A model generated the notes under the pieces. The model saw only the letters and a list, made by a program, of their open reading frames with translations, did not search any database and had not been told where the DNA came from. Below are positions 8,740-40,190 of a DNA stretch of 64,000 bases, in pieces. How positions within the stretch are numbered: position 1 is the stretch's first letter; each line of letters opens with the position of its first letter. Where the stretch lies: the NCBI RefSeq assembly GCF_003018255.1, contig NZ_CP027440.1. One strand, given 5' to 3'. Source of the DNA: Escherichia coli. Its GTDB lineage: Bacteria > Pseudomonadota > Gammaproteobacteria > Enterobacterales > Enterobacteriaceae. The position numbers were made by a program, and so were the translations under genes.

Positions 8740-8817
8740 TGCGTATCTGCGCACGTCGAAGATGAAAAAGGCGTGCTACATTGACGGCAGAATCCCTTTA
8801 TGGAGTATCCACGCGTT

Positions 8818-9804
8818 ATGATACGTTTCGCTGTGATTGGTACGAACTGGATCACTCGCCAGTTCGTCGAGGCCGCCCATGAGAGCGGTAAATACAAGTT
8901 AACCGCCGTATATTCCCGCAGCCTTGAACAGGCCCAGCACTTTGCCAATGATTTTTCTGTCGAGCATCTGTTTACGTCGCTGGAAGCGATGGCGGAAAGC
9001 GATGCCATTGACGCGGTGTATATTGCCAGCCCGAATGCCCTGCACTTTTCCCAGACACAACTTTTCCTTAGTCACAAAATTCATGTGATTTGCGAGAAGC
9101 CGCTGGCATCGAATCTGGCGGAAGTGGATGCCGCCATTGCCTGTGCGCGGGAAAATCAGGTGGTGCTGTTTGAGGCATTTAAAACGGCCTACCTGCCGAA
9201 CTTTCATCTGTTGCGCCAGGCGCTGCCGAAAGTCGGCAAACTGCGTAAAGTCTTTTTCAACTATTGCCAGTATTCCTCGCGGTATCAACGTTACCTGGAT
9301 GGTGAGAATCCCAACACCTTTAATCCAGCATTCTCTAACGGTTCAATTATGGATATCGGCTTTTACTGTCTGGCGTCGGCGGTGGCATTATTCGGTGAAC
9401 CGAAAAACGTGCAGGCAACCGCCAGTTTGCTGGCAAGCGGTGTGGATGCCCACGGCGTGGTGGTGATGGATTACGGTGATTTCAGCGTTACGTTGCAGCA
9501 CTCAAAAGTGAGCGATTCTGTCCTGGCAAGCGAGATTCAGGGCGAAGCGGGATCGCTGGTGATTGAAAAACTGTCTGAATGCCAGAAAGTGTGTTTTGTG
9601 CCGCGTGGCAGCCAGATGCAGGATCTGACCCAACCGCAGCATATTAATACCATGCTCTACGAAGCAGAGCTGTTTGCTGAACTGGTGGATGAGCATCTGG
9701 TGGATCATCCAGGGCTGGCGGTCAGTCGCATCACCGCTAAACTGCTGACCGAGATCCGCCGCCAGACTGGGGTGATTTTTCCGGCAGATAGCGTAAAACT
9801 ATAA
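8818..9804 (+). CDS. ygjR: Gfo/Idh/MocA-family NAD(P)-dependent oxidoreductase
   Basis: Start at ATG 8818 (MIRFAVIGTNWIT Rossmann N-terminus); 328 aa. Confidence 0.85.
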   Translation: MIRFAVIGTNWITRQFVEAAHESGKYKLTAVYSRSLEQAQHFANDFSVEHLFTSLEAMAESDAIDAVYIASPNALHFSQTQLFLSHKIHVICEKPLASNLAEVDAAIACARENQVVLFEAFKTAYLPNFHLLRQALPKVGKLRKVFFNYCQYSSRYQRYLDGENPNTFNPAFSNGSIMDIGFYCLASAVALFGEPKNVQATASLLASGVDAHGVVVMDYGDFSVTLQHSKVSDSVLASEIQGEAGSLVIEKLSECQKVCFVPRGSQMQDLTQPQHINTMLYEAELFAELVDEHLVDHPGLAVSRITAKLLTEIRRQTGVIFPADSVKL

Positions 9805-9859
9805 TTGCCAAAGTAAAACAGTGTAAAAGGTATGTAACAGACCATTGACTGACTGAATG

Positions 9860-10086
9860 GTCTGTCATACTTTGTTACCTGCAAAGGGGAGTAACTTCAT
9901 TGCCGGTCGATCGTCATTACGATGTGTGAAAAACCACATCCGGTCACCGGGCAACCCGAAAGGAATACGCAGACGTATTCCTTTTTTGTTGTAAGTGAGA
10001 CCTTGCCGGAAGGCGAGGTCTATGCATAAAAAGCAGCGGCTGACGTCTTCCGACGTTGGCCGTTTTTTTATGTGTAAGGAACTTCT
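9860..10086 (+). ncRNA. alx 5' leader: yybP-ykoY-type (Mn2+/pH-responsive) riboswitch region
   Basis: aaaggggagta motif at 9883-9893 and hairpin plus T-run ggaatacgcagacgtattcctttttt upstream of alx; E. coli alx is known to carry this leader. Confidence 0.55.
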
Positions 10087-11052
10087 ATGAATACTGTCGG
10101 CACGCCGTTGCTATGGGGCGGATTCGCTGTTGTTGTCACCATTATGCTGGCTATCGACCTGTTGTTGCAGGGGCGTCGTGGGGCACATGCCATGACCATG
10201 AAACAGGCTGCGGCCTGGTCGCTGGTCTGGGTGACGCTGTCGTTACTGTTTAACGCCGCTTTCTGGTGGTATCTGGTGCAAACCGAAGGTCGCGCCGTTG
10301 CCGATCCACAGGCACTGGCCTTTCTCACGGGTTATCTGATTGAGAAATCGCTGGCGGTCGATAACGTCTTTGTCTGGCTGATGTTGTTCAGCTATTTCTC
10401 TGTTCCGGCGGCATTACAACGCCGCGTGCTGGTGTATGGCGTGCTCGGGGCGATTGTTCTGCGTACCATCATGATCTTCACTGGCAGCTGGCTGATTTCA
10501 CAGTTCGACTGGATCCTGTATATCTTCGGTGCCTTCCTGCTGTTTACCGGCGTGAAGATGGCGCTCGCCCATGAAGATGAATCAGGCATTGGCGACAAGC
10601 CGCTGGTGCGCTGGCTGCGCGGTCATTTGCGCATGACCGACACCATCGACAACGAGCATTTCTTTGTGCGTAAAAATGGTTTGTTGTATGCCACGCCGCT
10701 GATGCTGGTGCTGATTCTGGTGGAGTTGAGCGACGTGATTTTCGCCGTGGATAGTATTCCGGCTATCTTCGCCGTAACCACCGATCCGTTTATTGTGCTG
10801 ACCTCAAACCTGTTTGCGATCCTCGGCCTGCGTGCGATGTATTTCCTGCTGGCAGGTGTGGCAGAGCGTTTCTCGATGCTCAAATATGGTCTGGCGGTGA
10901 TTCTGGTGTTTATCGGTATCAAGATGCTGATTGTCGACTTCTACCATATTCCGATCGCCGTCTCGCTGGGCGTGGTGTTTGGCATTCTGGTGATGACGTT
11001 TATTATCAACGCCTGGGTGAATTATCGGCATGATAAGCAGCGGGGAGAATGA
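10087..11052 (+). CDS. alx: TerC-family membrane protein Alx (putative Mn2+ exporter)
   Basis: 321-aa polytopic membrane ORF. Confidence 0.9.
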
Positions 11053-11144
11053 TTCGCTGTATATTAAGCCATTACTAGAGATAACTCATTCCAGACAAAG
11101 GTGAGCTATTAATTATGTAATCGGCTTATAGCTCTTTACAAAAA

Positions 11145-11390
11145 GACCGCACGGGTGTTGGTGGCGTCAAAATCGCCGAAGCGTTCCCTGGAGGCCGGGG
11201 CGACGCGCATGGATGCGCGGCGAGGGCGCATCTTACAGGGACGTTCCCTTGCGCCCGACCCGGTAGCCGCAAGGGATAAGCTGAGGGAACCGCGCAGCGG
11301 CGATTTTGTTCGCCAGAGCCTGGGGGTGCAGGGGGCGGCGGCGATTGGCCGCCCCCTGCGCGCTCCCTGCGCCAGTGGCTTTATATGGCA
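11145..11390. repeat. GC-rich palindromic intergenic element of unknown identity
   Basis: Inverted arms ggcgtcaaaatcgccgaagcg / cgcagcggcgattttgttcgcc; internal palindromes gcgcatggatgcgc and gttccctg...cagggacgttccc; local GC far above flanks. Confidence 0.4.
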
Positions 11391-11667
11391 TAGCACATTA
11401 AAGGAGCGCAACCGTTCTCATATTCCAAATAGTTTTGCCCATATGTTATCTAATCAGCCTTAGTAGCCAGTCCTTCCCTCTGTTTATGTCAAATAAATGT
11501 AACCATTAAGTTGCAAAATATGACCTCTCTTTAAAATCCAGCATTTTTCGCTTCCCGAAGCTGTAACTTTCCTTATACTCGACCTTGCAAACACTTTGTT
11601 ACATCCTGAAAGATGCGTCGACAGAACGCACCAAGGATGTGCGACAACACAATGAAAGGATCGAAAA

Positions 11668-39813: not shown

Positions 39814-40190
<377 letters not shown>

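Follow-up and report, generated by a model that had tools for sequence, protein, structure and literature searches.

The stretch of Escherichia coli DNA analyzed here (64,000 nt; the window) contains ygjR at 8800 to 9804 and alx at 10087 to 11052, and both the open reading frame list and the annotation leave an intergenic gap of 282 bp between them. The question raised by this locus is whether the gap encodes a riboswitch of the yybP-ykoY kind, as an initial annotation had suggested from a short motif and a terminator-like hairpin, and how to read the fact that the Rfam model for this family does not recognize it. The identity of the locus is certain. It is the E. coli alx leader, PRE, as established by its position between ygjR and alx, its sequence, and the presence of hairpins B, C, and D and the active-structure stem (by K-12 identity, folding, and covariation). 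We further consider it very highly probable that this locus forms the 5' leader of alx mRNA and that, as a cotranscriptionally acting riboswitch of the yybP-ykoY kind, it senses Mn2+ with a response tuned by alkaline pH. The alx leader is already known and is among the best-studied riboswitches of E. coli; nothing in it is biologically new.

The window shares 319 of 321 bases with K-12 MG1655 over the stretch from the promoter through the leader to the start codon. The two single nucleotide polymorphisms lie at 9852 (A in the window, G in K-12; promoter spacer) and 9934 (C in the window, A in K-12; P3.2 loop), both outside paired or conserved positions. These are the only differences from the K-12 leader, which occupies the same locus and whose published hairpins B, C, and D map onto the helices P4, P5, and P6 described below. 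The K-12 leader is reportedly also to be credited to Nechooshtan 2009 and Dambach 2015, as later papers cite them. The region from 9780 to 10140 is present in 5,419 of 5,426 complete E. coli genomes at 95 to 100% identity, flanked by annotated ygjR and alx. The product of the open reading frame at 10087 to 11052, Alx, belongs to the TerC family (PF03741 match of 181.8 bits).

The K-12 leader has been studied in detail (Nechooshtan 2014; Stephen et al. 2025; PMC3874183). PRE was reported to act on alx chiefly at steps beyond transcription initiation and to respond to both Mn2+ and pH, and a reporter was induced by Mn2+ (PMC10197570). E. coli has two yybP-ykoY riboswitches that sense Mn2+, those of alx and mntP, and their aptamers are structurally distinct (PMC12153347, NAR 2025). 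The proposal that the gap of about 280 bp holds the known Mn2+- and pH-responsive alx leader is thus borne out by the K-12 identity, the literature, and the residue numbering given below, and the motif on which it drew, AAAGGGGAGTA, lies at 9883 to 9893 on the + strand.

Two features define the beginning of the transcript:

9845-9871, + strand: putative sigma-70 promoter, with a -35 element TTGACT at 9845-9850, a 15-nt spacer, and an extended -10 element TGtCATACT at 9863-9871
9880, + strand: transcript +1 by the published numbering, under which the named residues fall on matching bases

With +1 at 9880, residues A11, U35, and A37 of PMC12153347 correspond to 9890, 9914, and 9916, and residues A132, G134, C135, and A137 of PMC3874183 correspond to 10011, 10013, 10014, and 10016. 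Conservation among species starts at G9881. The promoter, which was read from the sequence, appears to fit this start site; our promoter scan demands a spacer of 16 to 18 nt and therefore did not list it. On the minus strand, a promoter-like site at 9827-9798 (TTTACA, 18 nt, TATAGT; 10 of 12 matches) immediately precedes the alx promoter and is directed at ygjR; the count of such sites is not above chance (1 found versus 0.8 expected). The leader also contains small open reading frames, such as 9857-9994 and 9922-10029, that extend over promoter and structured RNA sequence.

Architecture of the aptamer

The leader (9880 to 10100) folds far better than shuffled sequences (z = -7.3). Its aptamer, at 9881 to 10006, is a three-way junction with two legs: a right leg composed of P1.1, L1, and P1.2 and a left leg composed of P3.0, P3.1, L3, and P3.2, stacked with P4. 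Its parts are as follows:

9881-9897, + strand: 5' strand of the right leg, with P1.1 at 9881-9882 and 9884-9887, L1 (GGAGUA) at 9888-9893, including A11 at 9890, and P1.2 (ACUU) at 9894-9897
9898-9902, + strand: L2 (CAUUG), the capping loop and junction, in the place of the P2 hairpin of four-way-junction members
9903-9950, + strand: P3, the left leg, with P3.0 (9903-9907 with 9946-9950), P3.1 (9909-9913 with 9941-9945), and P3.2 (9921-9926 with 9935-9940)
9914-9920, + strand: L3 (UCAUUAC), a 7-nt 5' bulge between the covarying helices P3.1 and P3.2, with A37 at 9916
9952-9991, + strand: P4 helix, whose base CAAC/GUUG pairs 9952-9955 with 9988-9991; three of the four base pairs covary
9962-9981, followed by U6 at 9982-9987, + strand: distal P4, GGAAUACG-CAGA-CGUAUUCC, the published hairpin B with terminator TB
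9993-10006, + strand: 3' strand of the right leg, the switching strand, with P1.2 (AAGU) at 9993-9996, L1 (GAGA) at 9997-10000, and P1.1 (CCUUGC) at 10001-10006

A scan of one genome per species yielded 80 loci with Alx orthologues (79 to 99% identity), from which we compiled an alignment (A2) of 68 distinct Enterobacterales leaders; leaders with large insertions were left out. When the three-way-junction structure from E. coli was tested on these 68 leaders, 98.0% of the cells were in standard pairs, and compensatory changes were found in 13 of 30 aptamer pairs (89 cells). None of 500 shuffles reached the observed values, and control structures slid by 1 to 3 columns gave just 24 to 42% pairing. 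The covariation backs P3.0, P3.1, P3.2, and the base of P4. P3 alone has compensatory changes in 10 of its 16 pairs, with 92 to 99% of cells paired, and the minimum free energy (MFE) fold agrees with it.

The right leg behaves differently. Its 5' strand (9881 to 9897) and its 3' switching strand (9993 to 10006) are each without variation in all 68 leaders, and P1.1 (9881-9882 and 9884-9887 with 10001-10006) and P1.2 (9894-9897 with 9993-9996) are 100% paired. Because these helices never vary, they have no covariation support, as is expected for strands that have two alternative partners. In L3, the sequence UCAUUAC is found in 56 of 68 leaders, and its first three bases, UCA, are invariant. 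L2 comprises 4 to 6 unpaired nucleotides of variable sequence between P1.2 and P3 and forms a hairpin in none of the 68 leaders, in line with the report that the L2 capping loop substitutes for helix P2 in alx (PMC12934788).

The RF00080 model and membership in the yybP-ykoY family

The initial annotation had named a covariance-model search with RF00080 as its test, with the lack of a significant hit counting against it, and a cmscan with this model indeed gave no significant match. At gathering thresholds, Rfam 15 recognized RNase P RNA alone in the 64-kb window and no RF00080. With permissive filters and E ≤ 10, RF00080 matched neither 9780-10140 nor the aptamer alone (9876-10012), and at E ≤ 1 it matched none of 20 orthologous alx loci of other Enterobacterales. 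Likewise, PGAP lists no riboswitch at the alx leader of a genome whose sequence there is identical. The leader's remaining weak Rfam matches, all below threshold (STnc370, STnc240, and others; E > 0.1), were set aside as look-alikes of terminator hairpins.

As a positive control, the same tool was applied to the K-12 mntP leader (L083:7462-7558), which scored 41.6 bits with RF00080 (E = 7e-10), below the gathering cutoff of 45. The negative result at alx is therefore weak evidence, since the mntP aptamer, for which a crystal structure exists (PMC12153347), also falls under the cutoff and since the alx aptamer is a three-way-junction variant. We accordingly rejected RF00080 as a decisive refutation. 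The lack of an Rfam hit does not rule out a riboswitch: both validated E. coli members lie under the RF00080 cutoff, the alx type being invisible to it, and annotation with Rfam 15 at gathering level would miss both Mn2+ riboswitches of this species.

Most of the features that characterize the family are present at alx, and the proposal of yybP-ykoY-type features holds despite the RF00080 result, on the strength of the L1 strands, the L3 bulge, the TerC context, and the literature. The 5' strand of L1, GGGGAGUA (9886 to 9893), with its conserved A-minor adenosine, agrees at all 8 positions with the RF00080 consensus and with mntP and is invariant in all 68 leaders. The 3' strand of L1, GAGACC, is also present, and P1.1 and P1.2 close the right leg. 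L3 is asymmetric and has an adenosine at its third position, as in the consensus ACAUACU, with which it shares 3 of 7 positions. Finally, the element lies in the 5' leader of a gene for a membrane protein of Mn2+ homeostasis (TerC). Two features are lacking: the leader does not score at least 45 bits with RF00080, and it has no four-way junction with a P2 hairpin, its three-way junction being as stated in PMC12153347 and PMC12934788. Membership thus rests on shared metal-core motifs and published biochemistry and not on the operational definition used by Rfam.

Comparison with known systems places these features in context. The mntP (yebN) leader shares GGGGAGUA, GAGACC, the arrangement of P1.1 and P1.2, an asymmetric L3 bulge in P3, and a place upstream of a Mn2+ exporter gene. 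It differs in having a four-way junction with a P2 hairpin where alx has a three-way junction, in its L3 (ACAUACU versus UCAUUAC), and in its RF00080 score (41.6 bits versus no match). It was also reported not to respond to alkaline pH alone (PMC10197570). The canonical yybP-ykoY members (L. lactis yoaB, X. oryzae, and B. subtilis yybP and ykoY) resemble alx in their two legs, in a conserved L1, and in the metal-binding core of L3; the genes they precede encode TerC, MntP, or P-type ATPase proteins, and several of these switches act through transcription termination. These members are four-way junctions, whereas alx is a three-way junction with a long, variable P4 (12 to 63 nt). [quoted passage not shown]

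We also built an alx-type covariance model (R1) from 65 aptamers. R1 scored the window at 123.5 bits and matched nothing else in it, and leaders left out of model building scored 62 to 101 bits; a dedicated three-way-junction model thus recovers the element at 62 to 124 bits. With filters off, the best placement of R1 on mntP was exactly GGGGAGUAGCC...GGCGAGACC, the L1/P1 strands, at a nonsignificant 2.5 bits (E = 1.4). Because this match is not significant and RF00080 misses alx, homology between alx and mntP is not demonstrable by sequence profiles in either direction. Automated annotation and database-derived phylogeny of the alx-type subclass are unreliable.

These results bear on the possibility that the locus is no yybP-ykoY riboswitch at all and that the resemblance is a short chance motif. 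In its favor are the RF00080 results for the leader and its 20 orthologous loci, the missing helix P2, and the statistics of the 11-mer: although AAAGGGGAGTA has its sole exact copy in the 64-kb window at 9883-9893 (+ strand), allowing up to one mismatch gives 2 matches versus 0.59 expected, a count equaled in 12 of 100 shuffles. By itself, the 11-mer is statistically unremarkable, and its significance lies in its conservation. Against a chance resemblance, the positive control mntP fails the same cutoff (41.6 versus 45 bits), GGGGAGUA and GAGACC are common to alx and mntP in the same paired arrangement, and the 7-nt L3 sits between covarying helices with a conserved A at the third consensus position. 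Given also the TerC gene context and the direct Mn2+ data in the literature, we regard a chance motif as extremely improbable and retain the riboswitch of the yybP-ykoY kind.

Terminators, antiterminator, and the choice between folds

A terminator scan of the leader found two sites versus 0.5 expected. The first is the hairpin to which the initial annotation had drawn attention, ggaatacgcagacgtattcctttttt at 9962 to 9987 (12 pairs, 4 of them G-C, a loop of 4, and a T-run). The second, at 10035-10064 followed by T7, is stronger and was absent from that annotation. The first hairpin is real and was flagged as terminator-like well upstream of alx, but it is the tip of the aptamer helix P4, and the switch terminator is P6. 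The predicted fold extends P4 by pairing most of this hairpin's U-run with GAAAGG (9958-9963). The distal part of P4 varies in length from 12 to 63 nt among leaders, and a run of at least four T on its 3' side occurs in 15 of 68. Because of this distribution, terminator B is specific to a lineage that includes E. coli and is no conserved part of the device. As the hairpin also sits between the P1.1 strands, inside the aptamer, we rejected it as the terminator of the expression platform. Rho-independent termination was reported in vitro at hairpin B (PMC3874183), and PRE was described as holding two intrinsic terminators (PMC10197570).

Downstream, the expression platform comprises the following elements:

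9998-10021, + strand: P5 (published hairpin C), the OFF-state hairpin, pairing 9998-10007 with 10012-10021 around a GGAA loop and taking up the 3' strand of P1.1/L1
10008-10051, + strand: ON-state antiterminator, pairing GGAAGGCG (10008-10015) with CGUCUUCC (10044-10051)
10036-10069, + strand: P6 (published hairpin D, terminator TD), with a stem of 10036-10047 and 10052-10063, a UUCC loop, and a U-run at 10063-10069
10076-10080, + strand: alx ribosome-binding site (RBS), AAGGA
10087-10089, + strand: alx start codon, ATG

P5 is found in the MFE fold of the full leader. Its six loop-proximal pairs are 99 to 100% paired among leaders and its four outer pairs 54 to 93%, and the first pause site, PC, was placed at +138 (10017) (PMC3874183). 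P6 has 13 pairs in the scan, 7 of them G-C; 95% of cells are paired, and three pairs are compensatory. Thus, the conserved, switchable terminator is P6, at 10036 to 10069, downstream of the aptamer. P6/hairpin D was identified as an intrinsic terminator in both PMC3874183 and PMC12153347, the former reporting termination there in vitro.

The antiterminator matches the P5/P6 helix described in PMC12153347 and is probably stem S of PMC3874183; like the other published helices, it maps onto the window. It is paired in 99.3% of cells, with compensatory changes in three pairs; of 500 shuffles, 0 or 1 did as well. Examples of compensation are GAAUGG/CAUUC in Citrobacter and GAAAGG/CUUUC in several genera. 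Its pairing is mutually exclusive with both P5 and P6. The OFF fold places these bases in hairpin loops, so that their covariation is hard to explain otherwise. The G134A mutant was reported to fold almost solely into the active structure (PMC3874183). This mutation (10013) fits the model, as it would break the C10006-G10013 pair in P5 and convert G10013-U10046 of the antiterminator to A-U.

The pattern of conservation also bears on the proposal that the RNA is a stand-alone, trans-acting sRNA, a terminated leader with the hairpins at 9962-9987 and 10036-10069 as its terminators. The locus was first reported as the sRNA SraF, and it contains two terminator-like sites. Short terminated products, TB and TD, were also seen in vitro (PMC3874183). 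The conservation nevertheless follows the cis logic of aptamer, antiterminator, and terminator, the antiterminator covarying with the terminator loop; the element always lies directly upstream of alx; and terminator B is found in just the 15 of 68 leaders noted above. Counting further against such an sRNA, we know of no trans target for the alx leader RNA. The sRNA proposal is almost certainly wrong, and we interpret the leader as a cis-acting switch.

The unconstrained fold of 9880 to 10100 is the OFF form, with P5 and P6, at -95.1 kcal/mol. Forcing the aptamer gave -79.3 kcal/mol and forcing the aptamer together with the antiterminator gave -72.1 kcal/mol, in an energy model that ignores tertiary and metal contacts. 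Because the OFF form is far more stable, the ON form must be trapped during transcription, helped by tertiary or metal contacts. The modeled energetics agree with a kinetically trapped ON state and with the published dependence on pausing. In the OFF fold (MFE), GGGAGU (9887-9892) pairs with ACUUCU just 5' of the AUG, and CUU (9895-9897) pairs with AAG of the RBS. This pairing between the RBS and L1 is kept in 71% of cells among species, in a 3' region that aligns poorly; it cannot covary, because the 5' strand of L1 is invariant.

Together, these elements suggest the following mechanism. Transcription would start near 9880, and the aptamer (9881 to 10006) would fold. Mn2+ bridging L1 and L3 would keep P1.1/L1 closed, leaving GGAAGGCG (10008-10015) free to pair with CGUCUUCC (10044-10051); P6 would then be blocked and the RBS open, so that Alx, a TerC-family Mn2+ exporter, would be made. 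Without Mn2+, 9998-10007 would be captured in P5 and the terminator P6 would form, and the freed G-rich 5' strand could pair with the RBS region, leading to an early end of the transcript or to no translation. The identity of the locus, the helices with their covariation, the mutual exclusion among P5, the antiterminator, and P6, and the large thermodynamic advantage of the OFF fold are directly supported here; for Mn2+ binding, the effect of pH, pausing by RNA polymerase, and termination at hairpins B and D, we rely on the literature. Alx differs from the canonical yybP-ykoY members in a platform that brings together a terminator, an antiterminator, and RBS occlusion and in a Mn2+ response tuned by pH (PMC12934788).

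In the original PRE model, the leader is a purely kinetic, pH-responsive riboregulator: alkaline pH lengthens pausing and thereby selects the active fold, there is no ligand, and GGGGAGUA is incidental. Regulation was explained by the pause sites PC and PD alone (PMC3874183), the ON fold is 16 to 23 kcal/mol less stable than the OFF fold, so that kinetic control is needed anyway, and the family covariance model fails to recognize the alx RNA. The invariance of L1 and of the L3 UCA in 68 leaders, flanked by helices that covary, is instead what is expected of a tertiary or ligand-binding core and not of a device that acts by pausing alone. Moreover, the A37U mutant was reported to lose its response to Mn2+ as well as that to pH (PMC12153347), and in single-molecule fluorescence resonance energy transfer (smFRET) experiments, the docked state was stabilized by Mn2+, an effect sensitized by alkaline pH (PMC12934788, a 2026 preprint). 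We therefore judge a purely kinetic device to be highly improbable and favor the Mn2+-sensing riboswitch; the kinetic and Mn2+-ligand models are now regarded as complementary.

Distribution and natural variants

With the search extended to 700 nt, GGGGAGTA was found upstream of the alx orthologue in 78 of the 80 species loci. In Atlantibacter sp. RC6 (L022; 889-1003), only a remnant is kept, with an R1 score of 23.8 bits. P3 and P4 have been cleanly deleted from this leader, apparently between the two CTTGCCGG repeats, so that GGGGAGTCACTTC abuts CTTGCCGGAAGGCGAG. In Rouxiella aceris (L074; 600-1003), there is no aptamer, and a P6-like terminator is kept just upstream of alx.

Several other leaders carry insertions of 70 to ~270 nt in peripheral parts of the aptamer, with the conserved core intact. 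The insertions lie in P4 in L003 (616-923), L013 (649-963), and L033, in the P3.2 loop in L015, L025, and L054, and in L2 in L080. Several are repeat elements, and those of L003 and L013 give sub-threshold Rfam matches to RF02798, RF02818, and RF02564. The inserts of L013, L033, and L080 are similar in sequence, and the insert of E. albertii (L003) has a copy of the P4 hairpin on each side. The natural variants, namely, the repeat insertions in P4, the P3.2 loop, and L2 and the P3 and P4 deletion of RC6, offer ready tests of which parts of the aptamer are dispensable.

Among Rfam RF00080 sequences, the alx L3 was reported to be restricted to Bacillales (PMC12934788). In contrast to this statement, UCAUUAC is present in 56 of 68 Enterobacterales leaders, and UCA in 68 of 68 (loci L002 to L081). 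The restriction to Bacillales probably reflects the content of Rfam, in which alx-type aptamers are uncaptured. We think it likely that the alx-type three-way-junction Mn2+ aptamer is a distinct subclass, unseen by RF00080 of Rfam 15 and near-universal upstream of alx in Enterobacterales. If so, Rfam-based surveys misdescribe the distribution of these riboswitches, and annotation omits both Mn2+ riboswitches of E. coli.

Elsewhere in the window, the RNase P RNA recognized by Rfam is rnpB, a full-length bacterial class A RNA at 39814-40190 on the - strand (RF00010, 319.7 bits). In the spacer between alx and sstT, the part at 11053-11482 does not align with K-12, and only the last 198 bp before sstT do. 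The nonaligning part holds a G+C-rich, unannotated sequence of which E. coli genomes carry a median of 3 copies, and the full-length version occurs at the alx-sstT site in 1,659 of 5,426 E. coli genomes.
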